This document shows positions 1 through 8,803 of a stretch of 64,000 nucleotides of DNA, one piece after another (position 1 is the stretch's first letter; the number at the start of each line of letters is the position of its first letter). Source of the DNA: Candidatus Latescibacterota bacterium. GTDB lineage: Bacteria; Latescibacterota; UBA2968; GCA-2709665. The position numbers and the translations under genes are program-made. The notes below the pieces were generated by a model that saw nothing but the letters and a program-made list of their open reading frames with translations, did not search any database and was not told the origin of the DNA. The stretch lies in contig OZ242180.1 of NCBI GenBank assembly GCA_965205485.1, positions 4,256,001 to 4,320,000 of the forward strand, written 5' to 3'.

Positions 1-379
1 AATGGACGAGTCCTTTCTCAATCGGGCGGTCAACGAGGGTTTCTCCGGCGGTGAGAAGAAGCGAAACGAGATTTTCCAGATGGCTATGCTCGAGCCCAGG
101 CTGGCCATCATGGACGAAACCGACTCCGGATTGGATATCGACGCCCTGAAAATCGTGGCCGACGGCGTAAATGCGCTTCACCGGAAAAACCCCGATGGCG
201 CGGTCCTCGTGGTCACTCACTATCAGCGGCTGCTGAATTACATCGTGCCGGACTTCGTGCATGTTCTTTTGAAGGGCCGGATTGTCAAATCGGGCGACAA
301 GGACCTCGCCCGGAAGCTGGAAGCGGAAGGCTACGATTGGATTCGAGAGGAATCTACGGCCCGATTCGCCCGCGCCTAA
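1..379 (+). CDS. sufC: Fe-S cluster assembly ATPase SufC (5'-truncated by window edge)
   Basis: [15 protein letters not shown], Walker [13 protein letters not shown] and VTHYQRLL are SufC signatures; lies upstream of sufD. Confidence 0.96.
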
Positions 380-592
380 GAAGTCGTTTTAAAATTGCCG
401 GTGAGTTCCCGAGCGCGAGCGAAAAAGTGGCGGTTATGAGGCGCGAGGGGCGCGCAGCGCAGACGGGAGAATCCGCCCGTATCCTAATGTATCGTGGCTG
501 CGCGCCCCTCGCCACTCTTGGGTGGGTTTGACCAACGCCGACCGGCGCTTTTGCAGCCGCGCGAAGACCGCTGGGAATTTTAAGACAGCTTC
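380..592 (+). mobile_element. MITE-like palindromic element, copy 1 (213 bp)
   Basis: Imperfect terminal inverted repeats GAAGTCGTTTTAAAATT / AATTTTAAGACAGCTTC; flanked by TAA direct repeat (377-379, 593-595); homologous to 13129-13338 and 23948-24031; no credible coding capacity. Confidence 0.85.
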
Positions 593-611
593 TAAAGGAG
601 GCAGCCGAAAC

Positions 612-1937
612 ATGGGGTTCGAAGGCACACAAGGCTATCTGTCGGCATTTGCAAAGTCTGAGGAACGGCTGAACGGAAGGCCCGCCATGTCTCTGCACGA
701 GCTTCGCAGGGCGGCGATCGGCCGATTCGAGGAACTCGGGTTTCCGGGTTCAAGGGACGAAGCCTGGTTTCACACGAATATCGCGCCGCTCGTCCGCAAG
801 CCGTTTCGTACAACGACGCCGGAGGATGCACGTCGGGCCTGGAAATCGGAACACCCATTTCAGGAACTGACTGCGACGCGCCTGGTCTTCGTGAATGGCT
901 TCTACAGCGCCGAAGATTCCAGTGCGGGGAGCCTCCCGAACGGTGTGCGGGCATGCAGCCTTGCGGAATTGAAGGCCTCCGAGTCGGATTGGGTGGAAGG
1001 CAATATCGCGCGGCACGCCGATTACGATGAACACGCTTTTGTCGCGCTCAACACCGCGTTTCTACAGGATGGCGCCTTCATACACGTCCCTCGAGGCACC
1101 GTTGTGGAAACGCCCATTCACGTGGTTTTTGTTTCAACAGCTTCAGGCGTCCCTTCCATTTCACACCCCCGTACCCTCGTACTGGCCGAAGAAAACAGCC
1201 AGGTGACGATCATCGAATCCTATACGGGCGACGGAGCCTATTTCACGAACGCGGTGACCGAAGTGATCGCCGACGACAGCGCGATCGTGGATCACTACAA
1301 GCTGGAGCTCGAGAGTCCGGAGGCGTATCATATCGCCACGATGCAGAGCCGCCAGGGCGCCCGCAGCGATTTGTCCACGCACGCGATCTCTATCGGCGGC
1401 AGACTGGTGCGCAACGAAGTCAACGCGCTGTTGGCCGGTGAAGCCGGTGAAGCCACGGTCAATGGCTTCTATCTGACCGATCGCGAGCAGCATATCGACA
1501 ACCATACCCTGATCGAACACGCCGAGCCGAATTGCAATAGCCACGAACTTTACAAGGGGATACTCGGCGGCAGATCCAGCGGCGTGTTTCGAGGCAAGAT
1601 ACATGTACACCAGAAAGCTCAGGAGACCGACGCGTACCAGAGCAACCAGAGTCTGCTCGTCTCGGAAGGTGCCGACATCAATACCAAGCCGCAACTCGAA
1701 ATCTACGCCGATCAGGTCAAGTGCTCGCACGGCGCAACGATCGGTCAGCTCGATGAAAACGCGGTCTTCTATCTGCGCTCGCGCGGGTTGAGTCACGCGA
1801 CCGCTCAACGTATTCTGGTACACGCGTTCGCGGTCGACATCCTGAACAGAATCAAGCCCGAATCCGTCAGAAACTACCTGGAACGAATTGTCATGGAAAA
1901 ATTCGAACAGGCGCGGGAGGCCGGAGACGCGCCATGA
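612..1937 (+). CDS. sufD: Fe-S cluster assembly protein SufD
   Basis: KPQLEIYADQVKCSHGATIGQLD..FYLRSRG motif; ATG at 612 follows AAGGAGG (the ORF-track start at 522 lies inside the MITE). Confidence 0.95.
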   Translation: MGFEGTQGYLSAFAKSEERLNGRPAMSLHELRRAAIGRFEELGFPGSRDEAWFHTNIAPLVRKPFRTTTPEDARRAWKSEHPFQELTATRLVFVNGFYSAEDSSAGSLPNGVRACSLAELKASESDWVEGNIARHADYDEHAFVALNTAFLQDGAFIHVPRGTVVETPIHVVFVSTASGVPSISHPRTLVLAEENSQVTIIESYTGDGAYFTNAVTEVIADDSAIVDHYKLELESPEAYHIATMQSRQGARSDLSTHAISIGGRLVRNEVNALLAGEAGEATVNGFYLTDREQHIDNHTLIEHAEPNCNSHELYKGILGGRSSGVFRGKIHVHQKAQETDAYQSNQSLLVSEGADINTKPQLEIYADQVKCSHGATIGQLDENAVFYLRSRGLSHATAQRILVHAFAVDILNRIKPESVRNYLERIVMEKFEQAREAGDAP

Positions 1938-3214
1938 GCCCTACTGCACATGCCCTGGCCGAACGGCTCTCCTGCCCGCTCGTCGAACGCGCGGGGCCTT
2001 TCGATCCCCACCGTATCCGGCGGGACTTTCCGGTACTGGACCAATCCGTTCGGGGCAAGCCACTGGTCTACCTGGACAACGCCGCTACAACCCAGAAGCC
2101 CCGGGATGTACTAGACGTCCTCGAAGTCTTCTACGAAGCGGCGAATGCGAACGTACACCGCGGCGTCCATCATCTCAGCCAGATCGCAACGGATTCTTAC
2201 GAGGGTGCGCGCAACAAGGTCCGCCGGTTTCTGAACGCGGCCCACGACCGGGAGATCATCTTCACCAGCGGAACCACGGACAGCATCAATCTCGTTGCCC
2301 AGACGTTTGGGCGAAAATCCGTCGAGGCCGGCGACGAAATCCTCATAACCCAAATGGAACACCATTCGAATATCGTGCCCTGGCAGATGCTCTGTGAGGA
2401 AAGAGGCGTGAAACTCCGTGTTATCCCCATCGACGACAACGGCGAGTTGCAGATCGACAGGCTCGAGTCACTGATGAACGAACGTACGAAACTCGTGTCC
2501 GTCGTCCACGTGTCGAACGTCCTGGGCACCCTCAATCCGGTTGCTTCAATCGCGGAATCGGCGCGAGAACGCGGTATCCCCGTACTGCTGGACGGAGCAC
2601 AGGCCGCTCCTCATTTCAAGGTGGACGTTCAGGCGTTGGGGTGCGACTTCTATGCCTTCTCGGGGCACAAACTATACGGTCCGACCGGTATCGGAGTGCT
2701 CTACGGAAGAAGCGAACTGCTGGATTCGATGCCGCCATACAGGGGAGGCGGCGGCATGATTCGAGAGGTCTCGCTTGAAAAAACCACCTATGCCGATGCG
2801 CCTGCCCGTTTCGAAGCGGGCACGCCCCATATTGCCGGTTGCATCGGGCTGGGCGCCGCCATCGACTATCTGAACCGGATCGACCTGGAAGCCGCCGCCG
2901 CGTACGAGAATGAACTGTTCGCCTACGCAACAGACGCGCTTTCCGAGATATCGGGATTGAGAATCATTGGTACCGCGCAAGACAGAGTCAGCGTTATTTC
3001 CTTTGTTCTGAAAGGCGTACACCCGCACGACGTCGGTACCGTTGTCGATCAGCACGGGGTGGCGGTCCGCGCCGGACACCACTGCGCCCAACCCGTCATG
3101 CGCCACTTCAATATTCCCGCAACAACACGTGCGGCTACAGCGTTTTACAATACACGGGAAGACATCGACACGCTCGTACGGGCTTTGCACGCGGCCAGAG
3201 AGATTTTTCGTTAA
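1934..3214 (+). CDS. sufS: Cysteine desulfurase SufS
   Basis: YLDNAATTQKP, PLP-lysine SGHKLYGPTGIG, catalytic RAGHHCAQP; ATGA overlap with sufD. Confidence 0.97.
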   Translation: MSPTAHALAERLSCPLVERAGPFDPHRIRRDFPVLDQSVRGKPLVYLDNAATTQKPRDVLDVLEVFYEAANANVHRGVHHLSQIATDSYEGARNKVRRFLNAAHDREIIFTSGTTDSINLVAQTFGRKSVEAGDEILITQMEHHSNIVPWQMLCEERGVKLRVIPIDDNGELQIDRLESLMNERTKLVSVVHVSNVLGTLNPVASIAESARERGIPVLLDGAQAAPHFKVDVQALGCDFYAFSGHKLYGPTGIGVLYGRSELLDSMPPYRGGGGMIREVSLEKTTYADAPARFEAGTPHIAGCIGLGAAIDYLNRIDLEAAAAYENELFAYATDALSEISGLRIIGTAQDRVSVISFVLKGVHPHDVGTVVDQHGVAVRAGHHCAQPVMRHFNIPATTRAATAFYNTREDIDTLVRALHAAREIFR

Positions 3215-3666
3215 TGTCCAACCTCAGAGAGCTGTACCAGCAGGTCATTCTTGACCACAACCGGAGTCCGCGCAACTACCGGTGCATGTGCGATGCCGAC
3301 CGGACGTCAGAGGGACACAACCCGCTGTGCGGCGACCACTTGAGCCTATATGTCAAGCTCGACGGGAGTACGATAGCAGATATTGCCTTTCAGGGCGAAG
3401 GATGCGCCATCTCCAAAGCGTCGGCATCCCTGATGACGGACGCCGTGAAGGGTCAGACCCTCGAGTGCGCGCAATCGCTCTTTGGAAGATTCCGTGACCT
3501 CGTCACAAGCGATGTGTCTACCGAACCGGCTGTCGACGGCATCGGCAAGCTGGCCGTCTTCGTTGGCGTGAGAGAATTCCCCGTGCGTATCAAATGCGCA
3601 ACCCTGGCGTGGCATACGCTCAAGGCTGCACTCGAAAACAGCAAATTGCCGGTGACCACCGAGTAG
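3214..3666 (+). CDS. sufU: SUF sulfur-transfer/scaffold protein SufU
   Basis: LYQQVILDH, NPLCGD, GCAISKASAS, RIKCATL; TAATG coupling to sufS. Confidence 0.95.
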   Translation: MSNLRELYQQVILDHNRSPRNYRCMCDADRTSEGHNPLCGDHLSLYVKLDGSTIADIAFQGEGCAISKASASLMTDAVKGQTLECAQSLFGRFRDLVTSDVSTEPAVDGIGKLAVFVGVREFPVRIKCATLAWHTLKAALENSKLPVTTE

Positions 3667-3689
3667 GTATCCATCGGGAGGGTATCATC

Positions 3690-4193
3690 TTGCTCGAACG
3701 ACTGCTGAACCGTCTCTACGGAAATGAGGAAGGCGAGTCCTCGGCGCGAAGGGACGACGTAGCGGATTCCGGAGCCGCAGACGCGACGACCCCCGTGGAC
3801 ACGAGCGCGCTCACGGAGCACGCCGCCAGACGACAGGAAGAAAAGCAGGAGTCGACCGAAGCGGCCGGAACCGATGGTTCGGTCGACACGGATGTCGTCA
3901 AAGAGAACATCATCGCCGCACATCGCACGGTATTCGACCCGGAAATTCCCGTCAATATCTACGATATCGGCCTTATATACGACATCAAAGTTGAACCCTC
4001 CGGGATGACCCACGTCCGGATGACCCTCACCTCCCCCGCCTGTCCGGCCGCGGGAATCCTTCCCGGTCAGGTAGAAAGCGCTACACGATCGGTTGCCGGA
4101 GTACGCGACGTCATCCTGGACCTGACCTTCGACCCGCCATGGAACCCGGAAATGATGTCCGAAGCCGCGAGGCTCGAACTCGGGCTCCTTTAG
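3690..4193 (+). CDS. sufT: SufT-like DUF59 (FeS_assembly_P) protein with acidic N-terminal extension
   Basis: DPEIPVNIYDIGLIY, MTLTSPACP, DPPWNPEMMSEAARLELG; probable TTG start at 3690 after GGGAGG. Confidence 0.88.
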   Translation: MLERLLNRLYGNEEGESSARRDDVADSGAADATTPVDTSALTEHAARRQEEKQESTEAAGTDGSVDTDVVKENIIAAHRTVFDPEIPVNIYDIGLIYDIKVEPSGMTHVRMTLTSPACPAAGILPGQVESATRSVAGVRDVILDLTFDPPWNPEMMSEAARLELGLL

Positions 4194-4309
4194 GTCGACG
4201 GCGGCCGCATTCCCCCTGTGCGCCGGGAACGTTCCCGCTCAACCGCGCCGCCTTGACCCAGCGGACGGCGCGGATCAGACTCCATCCCGACAAGAATTGG
4301 GAAGGCTCC

Positions 4310-4789
4310 ATGAAATTGAGCGCAGGTGAAGAATACGGGCTTCGGTGCCTGCTCCAGATCGGCCGGCGGCAGCGAGAAACCGGCGGCGGCCTTTCCATAT
4401 CTGAAATCAGCCGGATCGAAGGCCTCTCGGTCCCGAATGTCGCAAAGCTGATGCGCCTTCTTCGGCTTGGAGGATTTGTCGAGAGCTCCCGGGGTCAGTC
4501 CGGAGGATACCGACTTGCGCAATCGGCCGACATGATTGTGGTGGGAGATGTGCTGGCCGCCCTGGGCGGGCGGATGTTCAATCCTGATTTCTGCGAAGAT
4601 CACGCGGGCCGTGAAGGGTTGTGTACGCACTCCGTCGACTGTTCCATCCGGTCGCTGTGGAGCTCGGTGCAATCTGTGATCGATCAGCTCCTCAGCCGCG
4701 TCACGCTGGATGATCTTCTGGGAGAAGAACAGGCCATGGATGCATGTCTGCAGAACGTAACCGAAGAGTTGATTCAGGTGTCGGGTTAG
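4310..4789 (+). CDS. Rrf2-family (IscR-like) transcriptional regulator
   Basis: MKLSAGEEYGLR, SSRGQSGGYRLA, three C-terminal Cys (FCEDH..LCTHSVDC). Confidence 0.92.
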   Translation: MKLSAGEEYGLRCLLQIGRRQRETGGGLSISEISRIEGLSVPNVAKLMRLLRLGGFVESSRGQSGGYRLAQSADMIVVGDVLAALGGRMFNPDFCEDHAGREGLCTHSVDCSIRSLWSSVQSVIDQLLSRVTLDDLLGEEQAMDACLQNVTEELIQVSG

Positions 4790-4890
4790 CTGCCCGCCTG
4801 CAATGCGAGTCCAACACGTTGCATCGCGGGGGCCGCACCCGCCGTCGTAAAACCAGGTGACGACTCCAAACATACCTACCGAGGTGTTCA

Positions 4891-5385
4891 ATGGGACTTG
4901 AGACGGGCCTTGGCGACAACGTCATTACCACCACGCTGTCAAAGATGATCAACTGGGCACGCAAGTCATCACTCTGGCCGATGCCGTTCGGCACGGCTTG
5001 CTGCGCCATCGAAATGATGGCCACGCTATCCGGACGCTTCGACATGGCCCGGTTCGGCGCGGAGGCCGTACGGTTCTCACCACGACAGTCCGACCTGCTC
5101 ATCGTATCGGGCCGGATATCGATCAAGATGATGCCTGTACTCAAGAAGATATACGACCAGATGCCGGATCCGAAGTGGGTGATTTCCATGGGTGCGTGCG
5201 CATCGTCAGGAGGCGTCTTCAATACTTATACGCTGGTTCAGGGCGTGGACCAGTTTCTTCCGGTCGACGTCTACGTGCCCGGCTGTCCCCCCCGGCCCGA
5301 AGATCTGCTGTCCGCGCTTATGAAGATACAGGAAAAGATAGACCGGGAACAACCCGCAAGGTCAGCCGTGGCGCTGGAATCCTGA
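4891..5385 (+). CDS. nuoB: NADH-quinone oxidoreductase subunit B homolog (stand-alone)
   Basis: [44 protein letters not shown]; all four N2-cluster Cys present. Confidence 0.93.
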
Positions 5386-5425: not shown

Positions 5426-6010
5426 ATGAATATCACCGTTACCGAAGCCGCGCAGAAGGAGGTTGTCAACCTGATCGGGAGCCAGGATTCGGACATCGTT
5501 GGCGTTCGAGTCAAGGCCGAGGCGGTGTCGCCACTGCAGGCCAATTACCGTCTCGCATTCGTTGCCCGCGGTCAGGAAGAGGATGACGACGTCGTCACGC
5601 CGTTCGAGGGGTTCAACATCTACGTAGACCCGGTAAGCGCGCCCTATGCCGAGGATATTTCGCTGGACTTCGTGGACAGCCTGATGGGCAGAGGGTTCAA
5701 AATCGAGAATCCCAACAAAGTACCGCCGCATCTGAAGGGCACGGCAGCCGAAAAGATCCAGAACATCATCGACGAAAAGATCAACCCCAGCGTCGCCATG
5801 CACGGCGGCCACATCTCACTGATCGACGTAAAGGATAACAAAGCATACGTCCAGTTCGGCGGCGGATGTCAGGGTTGCGGTATGGTGGACGTCACGCTCA
5901 AGCAGGGCGTCGAAGTTCTCATCAAGGAGGCTGTGCCGGAAATTGAAGAAATCCTCGACGTGACCGAACACGCGGACGGCACAAACCCCTATTATCAAAC
6001 CTCAAAATAG
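5426..6010 (+). CDS. nfuA: NfuA-type Fe-S carrier (degenerate IscA-like N-domain + NifU-C domain)
   Basis: INPSVAMHGG, GGGCQGCGMVDVTLKQG (CxxC), DVTEH.G.NPYY. Confidence 0.92.
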   Translation: MNITVTEAAQKEVVNLIGSQDSDIVGVRVKAEAVSPLQANYRLAFVARGQEEDDDVVTPFEGFNIYVDPVSAPYAEDISLDFVDSLMGRGFKIENPNKVPPHLKGTAAEKIQNIIDEKINPSVAMHGGHISLIDVKDNKAYVQFGGGCQGCGMVDVTLKQGVEVLIKEAVPEIEEILDVTEHADGTNPYYQTSK

Positions 6011-6026
6011 CGAGCGCAAACGACAA

Positions 6027-7511
6027 ATGGCAGACACCATGGGGACCTCCCCGTTGTCTGCCGTTTTTTTGGATGGTCGACCATTGACGATCAATAGCCC
6101 ATCGGGTCCGTTCAAAGCTGTACTCGTGTCCACGTACGAACTGGGTCGACAGCCATTCGGTCTGGCCTCGCCGGCAGCGTGGCTGCGGAGGGCGGGCATC
6201 GATGTGGTCCAGGCCGACGTTTCGATCGAAGATTTTCCCGCCAAAGACGTGCGCGACGCCGATCTCGTGGCGTTCTACGTGCCAATGCATACCGCGACGC
6301 GTCTTGCCGTTCCACTTGCCTTGCGGGCTCGAGAGCTGAATGCCAACGCTCACCTCTGCTTTTTCGGGCTCTATGCTTCGGTCAACGAATCCTTCCTGAG
6401 AAGCCTGGGCGCACAGACCATTCTCGGCGGTGAATTCGAAAACGGTCTTCTTCAACTGTGCAATCGCCTGCGGGAGGCTTCAGGCGCGAACGGAACGCAG
6501 GAAGAACCCGTCGTTTCCCTCGCAAGACAGCATTTTCATCCGCCCGATCGTACAGGCCTTCCCAACCTGTCCCGTTACGCAAGTCTTTGCACCGGCGACG
6601 GACGTCTCAAAACCGTCGGCTATACAGAGGCAAGCCGTGGCTGCAAGCATCTCTGTCGCCATTGTCCCGTGGTGCCCGTGTACGGCGGCAGGTTCCGGAT
6701 CGTACAAAGCGACATCGTACTTGACGACATCGCCCAACAGGTCGCATCGGGTGCGGGCCACATCACGTTTGGCGATCCTGACTTCTTCAACGGCATCGGC
6801 CACGCCCTGCCGCTTGTCGAAGCGCTCCACGGGAGATTTCCCGATCTCACCTACGACGTTACCGTAAAGATCGAACATCTCTTGCGATTTCGCCGCTATC
6901 TGCCCACCCTCCGAGATACCGGGTGTGCACTCGTTACGACCGCGGTCGAGTCCCTCGACAACCGTGTTCTCACGCTGCTGGACAAGGGTCATACAGTCGA
7001 GGACTTTTACGAAGTCGTGGACGTCTTCACGAAACACGGGCTCGTGATGAATCCGACGTTCATTCCGTTTACGCCCTGGATCACCATGGAGGGATATGCC
7101 AGCTTTCTGGACACGCTCGCCGGCCTCGACCTGATCGAGTACGTCTCTCCCGTTCAGCTCACCATCAGGCTGCTTATTCCCGGGCAATCAAAGCTGCTGG
7201 ACCTTGCCGACGTGCGCAATTCTGTGGGTCCGTTCGAACCGGCAGCGTTGTCCTACCCCTGGGCGCATCCCGACGCCCGTCTGGACCGGCTTCAGAATGA
7301 ACTGACCCGGCTGGTCACACGGCTTCAGAACAGGGACGCTCCCCGGCGTGAGATCTTCCACAGGATCCGTTCGCGTGTGTACGGCCTGACGGACCGCCCC
7401 GCCCCAATCGCGGGTTTTGATGCGGACTCGGCCCGCCTGTCGCTTCCCCGGCTCACCGAACCCTGGTACTGCTGAGCGGAACCCACCGAAGAGCAGTTCG
7501 CTCTTGTCTGA
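6027..7511 (+). CDS. B12-binding/radical SAM selenoprotein with C-terminal CUAEP tail (Sec at TGA 7473-7475)
   Basis: CxxxCxxC (SRGCKHLCRHCP); reading through TGA 7473 gives EPWYC-U-AEPTEEQFALV ending at TGA 7509-7511, matching the CUAEP/CCAEP-tail radical SAM family as recalled; SECIS-like hairpin follows; start codon uncertain. Confidence 0.88.
7489..7505 (+). promoter_or_regulatory. Putative bacterial SECIS hairpin
   Basis: AAGAGC-AGTTC-GCTCTT perfect 6-bp stem; loop starts 19 nt after the UGA and has G then U at loop positions 2-3. Confidence 0.72.
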
Positions 7512-7582: not shown

Positions 7583-8803
7583 TCAATCCTCAATCACGAC
7601 GTCCAGCAGTCCATTGGCCTCCCTGAGCGCCGTTTCCACCGCCTCGGGCGTCCTCCCGCGCGCGAAGATGAACCCCAGATACCGGTCTCCTTCGGGCAGC
7701 GGCTGAACGGTCTGCCCCCTTGGAACCGTGATCACGACGTCCAGAATTCCCGGCATACGCCGTGCACGTGCCGTCCCGCGCACCTGCCGAAGCGTTCCCG
7801 GCTTCGGCACCGGAAGCATGATCACTCCCGCCGCCGTATCCTCCCGGAGTAAATCGCCCGGAGCTCGACCCGCTGCCTGGCGCAGGATCAGTTCTTCCAG
7901 CGACACGCCCGCGCCGAAGCGCAATACCCGCGAACACAGCCCGCCAATGGATCGCGCCGCGATTTCCACCACGTGGATGCCACGCGCGTTCAGCCGTAAT
8001 TCCGCGTGTACCGGCCCCACGGTCAATCCCAGGGCCGTTGCGGCCTGTTGCGCGGCGACGCTTATCCGCGCCTGATCGCAATCTGATAGCCGGGACGGCG
8101 TAATGTACAGCGTCTCGGCGAAATATGGACCGCAGAGCGGGTCCGGTTTATCGAACAACGCGAGGGTGTGAAGCTCACCGTCGACAAGCAATCCCTCCAG
8201 CGCGACTTCCCGGCCGGGAATGTAGTCCTCCACCAGAATAGCCTCGGGCAAGCAATCTTCGGATCCCGAAATCATCCCCAGAATTCGATTGAAAGCAGCT
8301 ACGAAATCCGCCTCCTGGTCCGCCCGAATTACGCCGCGGCTCGCCGAGAGAGAAACGGGCTTCAATACGCACGGATAGTCGACGGTTGCGGCCGCTTCCG
8401 CCGGTTCGTCCCGAATTGAAAAAAGCCTGAACCCTGGCGAGGGCAGGCCTTTTTCGGCAAGCATCCGGCGCATCACGTGTTTGTAACGGGACGCCCGGAC
8501 GGACGAAACCGGATTGTGCGGCAGTCCAAGCGCCTCACAGGCCATCGCGGCGAGAACGACGGTCTCGTCGTCGACGCCGACCACCGCCCGGACGGGGTAT
8601 TCCTTCGAATGGGCGACGATCTTGCCGACCGATACTGCCGGCCTGGTGAAGTCCAGCGCGAGCGTCTTTCCGGGCGTCAGGCTCGCCAGCGCCTGGCGGC
8701 GGTCCGATCCAACGACCACGGCAACGTTAAGTGCAGCCGCCGCGGCCATGAAATCGCGGGTACGGTAGGTCGAAGTCGGAATAAGCAGCAGAAGCCGGTC
8801 CAT
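7583..8803 (-). CDS. ATP-grasp domain protein
   Basis: YPCVLKPVSLSASRGVIRAD, LVEDYIPGREVALEG, HAELR..EIAARSIGG. Confidence 0.9.
   Translation of the reverse strand: MDRLLLLIPTSTYRTRDFMAAAAALNVAVVVGSDRRQALASLTPGKTLALDFTRPAVSVGKIVAHSKEYPVRAVVGVDDETVVLAAMACEALGLPHNPVSSVRASRYKHVMRRMLAEKGLPSPGFRLFSIRDEPAEAAATVDYPCVLKPVSLSASRGVIRADQEADFVAAFNRILGMISGSEDCLPEAILVEDYIPGREVALEGLLVDGELHTLALFDKPDPLCGPYFAETLYITPSRLSDCDQARISVAAQQAATALGLTVGPVHAELRLNARGIHVVEIAARSIGGLCSRVLRFGAGVSLEELILRQAAGRAPGDLLREDTAAGVIMLPVPKPGTLRQVRGTARARRMPGILDVVITVPRGQTVQPLPEGDRYLGFIFARGRTPEAVETALREANGLLDVVIED

Follow-up and report, generated by a model that had tools for sequence, protein, structure and literature searches.

Our results strongly support a three-gene module in the window, as we call the whole 64,000-nt stretch of DNA analysed here, consisting of a radical SAM gene, an ATP-grasp ligase of the L-amino-acid-ligase type, and a small iron-handling protein that is either NfuA or YggX. 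The radical SAM gene almost certainly encodes a selenoprotein, judging from its own sequence and those of its relatives, in which a TGA before an AEP tail is read as selenocysteine (Sec); read-through and family membership are already known, and the gene is another member of a named family. The ligase and the NfuA/YggX partners are an addition to an earlier sequence-only reading of this DNA, which had dealt with the radical SAM protein and its tail. Together with the ligase, these carriers keep a lysine near their C-terminus that is found almost only alongside the ligase, which suggests an undescribed chemical tagging of iron-handling proteins; modification of this lysine is a testable hypothesis. 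The features concerned are collected in Table 1.

Table 1 Features of the window discussed in the text, with positions counted from its first letter.
Feature	Position	Strand	Evidence and remarks
CUAEP-tail radical SAM gene, predicted selenoprotein	6084..7511	+	475 aa with Sec; NF040546, PF04055, homologue starts, AF2 model
CxxxCxxC cluster motif CKHLCRHC	6642..6665	+	3 Cys invariant in 74/74 family rows and 3 ArsL rows
Extra invariant Cys, C300 counted from 6027; candidate third ligand	6924..6926	+	74/74 family rows; L/V/V in 3 ArsL rows
Predicted Cys-Sec pair (TGC TGA)	7470..7475	+	TGC 7470-7472, TGA 7473-7475; TGA/Cys alternation across loci
Tail AEPTEEQFALV and true stop	7476..7511	+	stop TGA 7509-7511; about 22 bits added to NF040546 score
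SECIS-like hairpin AAGAGC-AGUUC-GCUCUU	7489..7505	+	6 bp stem, 5-nt loop, G at loop position 2
L-amino-acid-ligase-type ATP-grasp protein, convergent partner gene	7583..8803	-	PF18130, PF13535, PF18603; closest solved structure 3VOT; co-occurrence
NfuA-type Fe-S carrier, third module member	5426..6010	+	PF01521, PF01106; slot counts; predicted docking
Terminal Lys194 of NfuA (NPYYQTSK-stop), proposed acceptor site	6005..6007	+	Lys/module correlation in NfuA tails
Terminator-like strong hairpin and U run between nfuA and radical SAM gene	6025..6070	+	-30.8 kcal/mol for 6015-6085, z -4.06
Upstream context: sufC part (by translation), sufD, sufS, sufU, SufT-like, Rrf2 regulator, NuoB-like gene	2..5385	+	context only

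Related loci were taken as the best 80 of 582 confirmed GTDB stretches, a set that leans to close relatives and Acidobacteriota. Neighbours of the radical SAM gene in these 80 loci include the ligase (56 loci), YggX (45), aconitase (40), DUF169 (9) and an NfuA domain (9). The association extends beyond adjacency in Acidobacteriota, where 41 of 251 genomes carry the radical SAM gene, 45 the ligase and 40 both, with the two genes on different contigs or far apart in 16 of the 40. Across the window's own phylum the identical 22 of 121 genomes have both genes, and both are present in 22/22 genomes of its own family and 0/19 of the sister family, although all of these counts overstate independence, the genomes being kin and incomplete. 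One ligase-only genome (G513) contributes one to the 45 and one to the 25 NfuA-type genomes given below. A Pseudomonadota sample yielded only the centre genome as positive (1/401), and a ligase match is missing in 6 of 26 chosen radical SAM genomes. Two ligase matches span only profile positions 1-277 (G741:C8:352174-353031) and 2-373 (G780:C1:4165551-4166660), possibly owing to frameshifts or inserts.

The partner ligase passes the Pfam cut-offs for ATPgrasp_N, ATP-grasp_4 and LAL_C2 and matches the L-amino acid ligase family profile (E 2e-67), and it reaches none of the NCBIfam ligase equivalog cut-offs. The same three-domain architecture is found in BL00235 (3VOT) and BacD; these enzymes make free dipeptides, whereas the partner ligase shows co-variation with an Fe-S carrier and is predicted to bind it.

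The third position in the module is occupied by one of two unrelated proteins. NfuA is a stress-related Fe-S carrier, as described in the available part of PMC8593673, and YggX is annotated as serving iron trafficking or oxidative-damage protection. Of 83 loci with the ligase, 74 have one or the other next to it, the two never occur together (0/120 loci, the best 80 of 582 plus 40 further), and NfuA often stays near the ligase in loci where the radical SAM gene is elsewhere. Module NfuA proteins end in NP[YF][YF]xxxK, some with a further extension, and module YggX proteins in P-x-x-[YF]-x-P-x-x-x-K. The lysine holds its register in NfuA proteins that extend past it, which points to the side chain and not the C-terminus as the relevant group.

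All 46 NfuA tails from module-positive genomes have this lysine, against 2 of 53 from module-negative ones (99 of 100 tails usable, drawn from the 60 best-scoring proteins and 40 hand-chosen module-negative ones), and the contrast is visible between neighbouring families, with NPYYQTSK in the window's own family and NPYYQTTQ or similar in its sister family. Among Acidobacteriota, the ligase is present in 25/25 genomes whose NfuA match reaches the lysine column and in 0/34 of the other genomes with a strong NfuA match. For YggX, where 43 of 46 tails could be parsed, the lysine occurs in 19/19 ligase-positive and 5/24 ligase-negative tails, with genome G618 in addition, such that 25 of the 45 Acidobacteriota with the ligase are of the NfuA-Lys type and the other 20 of the YggX-Lys type; two of the NfuA-type genomes also have YggX, there without the lysine tail. 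Among radical SAM genomes without a ligase match, five contain no NfuA of the module type, and both readable YggX tails are without the lysine. The correlation rests on few independent events: the NfuA tree has 8 lysine changes and 9 module changes that give only 3 well-supported independent pairs (p 0.25), the YggX tree has 2 independent lysine/ligase pairs, and tree tests of co-evolution are not significant. There may also be a third kind of partner, given that two Chloroflexota genomes (L339, L341) have the ligase with neither NfuA nor YggX beside it, and no NfuA of the module type was found there.

Structure prediction with ESMFold2 places the C-terminal domain of NfuA on the ligase N-terminal domain and residues 358-364 with a score of 0.74, against 0.00 for the best of three controls; the mark that we used was reached by 51/78 solved pairs, 2/108 mismatched pairs and 7/44 blind neighbours, a calibration made without the ADP that the docking model includes. 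Contact agreement between runs was at least 92%, and the pLDDT of the partner at least 79. Among the 25 positions that discriminate best between 29 NfuA-type and 49 YggX-type ligases, 11 fall in the 27-residue predicted interface; since partner type changes only once on the ligase tree, this comparison amounts to one between two clades. Taken together, the co-inheritance and the structure model indicate that the ligase probably binds NfuA or YggX. In the docked fragment the tail can be followed as far as residue 88 of 92, and Lys92 falls outside the set of interface residues placed with confidence.

The firmest predicted contacts lie on an NfuA helix (fragment residues 53-63), away from the lysine, which leaves room for a reading in which the ligase binds NfuA or YggX and the lysine matters without being the site of an aminocarboxypropyl (ACP)-acyl tag. 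It could provide a docking charge, or serve as a transient tether on which a common acid is loaded, modified by the radical SAM enzyme and later released. This would cover the co-inheritance and the model equally well, yet we consider it unlikely: two unrelated folds hold the lysine at a fixed distance from an aromatic residue of the tail, a pattern that a reactive residue fits better than a generic charge, and no release enzyme recurs in the neighbourhoods.

We favour the lysine as a site of acylation, and propose the following sequence of steps. First, Sec would be inserted at TGA 7473, giving a Cys-Sec radical SAM enzyme. Second, this enzyme would cleave SAM at C-gamma with its tail presenting the acceptor, and would move the ACP group of SAM to a thiol-loving atom X held by the Cys-Sec pair; by analogy with ArsL we regard such a step as likely. 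Third, the ligase would bind NfuA or YggX, and lastly it would join the ACP-X amino acid to the lysine side chain in an ATP-dependent amide, leaving an acylated, flexible C-terminal arm on the Fe-S or iron carrier. The amide step, which derives from ATP-grasp chemistry, is in our judgement only somewhat better than evenly balanced; these ligases phosphorylate a carboxylate and then pass it to an amine, according to the accessible text of PMC13149037. Given that ACP-X would be an L-amino acid, the donor of this ligase class, and that the conserved lysine supplies an amine, the order radical SAM enzyme, ACP-X, ligase, acyl-lysine is favoured, and we put forward the chain as a whole tentatively, with somewhat less than even confidence.

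The identity of X is a further point of conjecture. As(III) or methylarsenite is our first guess, a possible rather than a probable one even if the ArsL-type step is granted, and S/Se or Fe are the alternatives. The likeness to ArsL and the MerB-like and HgcAB-like neighbours of ligase-less copies suggest arsenic; the absence of ars genes and the single-copy presence across the family argue for a more routine X, such as S, Se or iron. A counterpoint to the mechanism is that the tail is without a third Cys, whereas ArsL binds arsenic through all three. In its broadest form the proposal is that a widespread three-gene system installs a post-translational modification, an ACP-metalloid (or -chalcogen or -iron) amino acid on a lysine of NfuA or YggX, as a lipoylation-like swinging arm for which two unrelated carriers have been recruited to one slot, and in this form it is a possibility that we hold to be decidedly short of probable. 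Lipoyl and biotinyl domains, EF-P lysylation and LysX-LysW likewise involve an ATP-dependent amide bond made at a dedicated residue of a small protein, and all of them differ from the present case in their ligase families or acceptor residues. We know of no lysine-acylated arm or carrier-loading system that has NfuA or YggX as its target or that uses an ACP amino acid made by a radical SAM enzyme.

The dipeptide-forming activity of the closest solved ligase relatives, 3VOT and BacD, would also fit a small-molecule pathway in which the radical SAM enzyme makes ACP-X, the ligase condenses this product with a free amino acid, and NfuA or YggX only supplies iron or clusters to the radical SAM enzyme. 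Radical SAM enzymes require cluster delivery, as set out in the part of PMC8593673 available to us, and two Bacillota arsL clusters have an L-amino-acid-ligase-type gene. These Bacillota ligases are, however, just 21-26% identical to the window ligase; moreover, the lysine tail tracks the ligase and not the radical SAM gene, NfuA often adjoins the ligase even where the radical SAM gene is elsewhere, the model docks NfuA on the ligase, and no exporter recurs among the frequent neighbours. A dipeptide pathway is thus rather unlikely in our assessment compared with acylation of the carrier. In the two Bacillota clusters (L129:2118-3668, L130:2330-3858) the ATP-grasp gene adjoins one for a small protein of the CMD family with a Cys-Cys end; these clusters may represent an arsinothricin dipeptide route, for which we found no published description. 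Their ligases were not treated as orthologues of the window ligase on the basis of this low identity, and their small neighbours end in Cys-Cys and not in the lysine motif.

The ArsL-like chemistry assumed in the second step draws on a comparison of the two enzymes. ArsL (NF040542) is the second-best NCBIfam model for the radical SAM protein (274.1 bits against a cut-off of 450), with the next family below 40 bits, and identity to a plasmid-borne ArsL is 34% over 406 aligned positions. The two share their domain layout and a vicinal Cys pair at the C-terminus, with the tail CC aligned, and in a family alignment of 74 rows (73 loci and the window) 64 of 141 near-invariant positions are identical in three ArsL proteins. 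They differ in several respects: ArsL has the tail RCCLKC with three Cys, in place of C-U-A-E-P here with the third Cys replaced; C300 and C111 (71/74 rows) are conserved only in the CUAEP family, which also has an inserted helical domain and a linker before the tail; and the arsM/arsQ/arsN context of ArsL is missing around CUAEP genes. Single-sequence queries for ArsB, ArsC, ArsH, ArsN and ArsQ gave no match in the best 80 of 582 loci or in the window's own genome; one ArsM-like gene was found among these 80 loci, and no orthologue-level ars match in the own genome. Identification of the protein as ArsL itself, and thus arsinothricin synthesis, was rejected on the NF040542 cut-off, the tail RCCLKC and the ars gene context. 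The protein probably works like ArsL without being an ArsL.

ArsL cleaves SAM to MTA and an ACP radical, and formation of the C-As bond requires its tail, which bears no extra cluster (10.1101/2024.02.01.577332). According to the accessible portion of a later study (10.64898/2026.04.29.721666), As(III) is bound by all three tail Cys, single Cys-to-Ala changes abolish activity, and there is formation of an organometallic Fe-ACP species whose carboxylate is uncoordinated. ArsL-type ACP transfer has to date been demonstrated for one CxxxCxxC family, as far as the available text of the ArsL papers goes. A review, of which part was available, describes an ArsL 'MCCA' mutant as best on methylarsenate, which we set aside as evidence because the changed residues are unconfirmed. 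The sequence-only reading had offered redox, metalloid-binding and cluster-ligating roles for the tail; via the likeness to ArsL, metalloid binding is the best supported of the three.

The other two roles would have the Cys-Sec pair act as a redox arm or auxiliary-cluster ligand in an enzyme that performs ordinary 5'-deoxyadenosyl radical chemistry and not ArsL-like cleavage. Consistent with such an enzyme, the tail has two chalcogen ligands only, behind the helical domain and linker absent from ArsL, 77 of the 141 conserved positions are not common to all three ArsL proteins, and the top fold matches are other radical SAM enzymes such as AprD4, TsrM and OxsB (14-18% identity), with no ArsL entry among them. 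An AF2 model of the protein, built from a 105-row alignment (pLDDT 91.4), starts with a Rossmann-like domain at the N-terminus, continues with the radical SAM core and a helical extension, and closes with a tail of lower confidence (block pLDDT 47-80), and a sequence search found no solved structure matching the protein. We nevertheless regard ordinary radical chemistry as improbable, given that ArsL is much nearer than other families, that its tail has no additional cluster (10.1101/2024.02.01.577332), and that MerB-like, HgcAB-like and DUF169 genes beside ligase-less copies point to organometal(loid) chemistry.

Ligase-less copies have surroundings of their own, and DUF169 lies near the radical SAM gene in 5/6 ligase-less genomes. 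One variant (L061:9515-12249, L081:9603-12282, L163:6626-11951) has the radical SAM gene followed by DUF169, a CpaM methyltransferase and an HgcAB-like fusion. In Nonomuraea (L030:9400-14600), a Cys-form radical SAM gene occurs with a methyltransferase-like ORF, an aminotransferase, DUF169 and two MerB-like ORFs (one by Pfam, one by eye), making this a candidate organometalloid natural-product cluster.

The selenocysteine assignment is the firmest part of the analysis. The ORF track and translation table 11 place the gene at 6027-7475, ending at a TGA, while the letters at 7470-7511 (TGC TGA GCG GAA CCC ACC GAA GAG CAG TTC GCT CTT GTC TGA) give the C-terminus WYC-U-AEPTEEQFALV when the first TGA is taken as Sec, exactly as the sequence-only reading had described it. 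The start is probably TTG 6084 and not ATG 6027, because homologues begin there and ATG 6027 lies inside a strong hairpin. The protein has the tail C-[CU]-A-E-P of NF040546 and matches this family with 609.1 bits against a cut-off of 500 (profile positions 2-467 of 468; 587 bits without the tail). NF040546 is listed as an uncharacterised CU-motif selenoprotein family (10.1101/2022.07.06.499078, in the portion available); the gene itself shows no difference from the family, and the ligase and NfuA/YggX partners are absent from that portion.

Comparison of homologues bears out the CUAEP/CCAEP family of the sequence-only reading, in which Sec alternates with Cys, and shows that the tail behind the TGA is no product of chance. 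In the best 80 of 582 loci (77 parsed together and the other 3 separately), the codon after W[YF]C is TGA in 49, TGC or TGT in 31 and TAA or TAG in none, and the residues that follow are AEP in 78, VEP in 1 and a contig end in 1; homologues ending at WYC without a conserved AEP, which would have spoken against Sec, are thus absent from the set. The single VEP belongs to a Sec-form member (L088:9387-9389). Each of 22 above-cut-off NF040546 matches in 41 genomes (the window's own and relatives) has exactly one TGA, and the codon is unchanged in contigs from 3 public runs (1 study with at most 2 samples, which may include the source sample). Standard gene callers do truncate such proteins, as had been anticipated: 109 of 120 database homologues are annotated as ending at W[YF]C and 11 run on as CCAEP. 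A member on a Thermomicrobium roseum plasmid (L128:7980-9416) is likewise stopped at the TGA in its public annotation, with the frame continuing AEPLED. The gene is single-copy in its own genome (one contig, 5.13 Mb, 97% complete); one gammaproteobacterial genome has two Cys-form copies (G057:C3:364727-366103 and 1290101-1291477).

The machinery for Sec insertion is complete in the window's own genome, where the proposed search for selA, selB, selC and selD found all four over their cut-offs (547.6, 357.6, 73.4 and 362.6 bits), together with tRNA-SeC(tca); selA, selB and tRNA-Sec cluster at C1:3225171-3228699, and selD is elsewhere. This selD is itself a predicted selenoprotein (G000:C1:2394761-2395684; in-frame TGA, CG-U-AAK) with its own hairpin downstream. 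The expectation of CCAEP forms in Sec-lacking genomes held in part: selA is present in 21/22 TGA genomes against 18/28 Cys genomes (50 of the 80 loci tested; Fisher p 0.014), but Cys forms also occur in genomes that have selA.

The hairpin downstream of the TGA, whose loop AGUUC sits 19 nt after the UGA on a 6 bp stem, agrees with the geometry of the bSECIS model (loop 3-9 nt, stem 4-16 bp, G in the first two loop positions, spacing 16-37 nt; PMC13188914, in its available part). On its own it folds with a borderline -6.2 to -7.4 kcal/mol, against a bSECIS threshold of -7.5 or lower; segment 7470-7530 reaches -15.1 kcal/mol with a z of only -0.53, shuffle z-scores after the UGA are not significant except for the bare 17-nt hairpin, and a similar hairpin follows 151 of 2282 long TGA-ending frames of the genome. 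Because of these weak z-scores and this genomic background, we judged the hairpin only by comparison among homologues. A stem of at least 5 bp closing on a CAG-containing loop is present in 36/46 Sec tails (window included) and 4/31 Cys tails, where synonymous resampling predicts 2.2 and 0.7, respectively, and a second tail set gave 19/20 Sec and 0/2 Cys; this count supersedes a fixed-register pairing (17/46 Sec against 0/31 Cys) that overlooks tails with a 4-nt loop. All 46 Sec tails encode the Gln as CAG, against 21/31 Cys tails. Rfam at gathering scores gave no match anywhere in the 64,000-nt window, leaving the SECIS without a family match. Read-through at TGA 7473, as first proposed, is thus supported by the NF040546 match, the full sel set and the Sec-specific hairpin. 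A genuine stop followed by a relic tail, for which the weakness of the window hairpin and its counterparts elsewhere in the genome would speak, is extremely improbable against the strict TGA/Cys alternation with its conserved AEP tail, the Sec-specific stem and the complete sel machinery.

We found no description of a module of CUAEP/CCAEP radical SAM enzyme, ATP-grasp ligase and NfuA/YggX lysine in a literature search that had most subscription journals outside its scope. For the catalogued family, the Sec call is a correct annotation fix, with the 109 truncated proteins being close homologues, and the partner genes give a family without an assigned function a candidate target residue (NfuA K194) and a candidate reaction (ArsL-type ACP transfer). 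If the proposal is true, it would add a new protein modification to Fe-S biology, one found in roughly 16-18% of the genomes sampled from Acidobacteriota and from the window's phylum; carbon-metalloid bond chemistry could then reach beyond arsinothricin.

Among the surrounding sequences, the hairpin between nfuA and the radical SAM gene may attenuate or separate transcription of the latter; a simple terminator scan did not pick it up. Two groups of neighbours were rejected as module members because they are lineage-local, namely the SUF operon (SufS in 5 and SufU in 6 of the best 80 of 582 loci) and aconitase, which is in none of 40 further loci. A stand-alone NuoB-like gene (4891-5385) between the Rrf2 regulator and nfuA is 94-99% identical in four relatives, and a second nuoB lies directly outside the window (C1:4252641-4253117).
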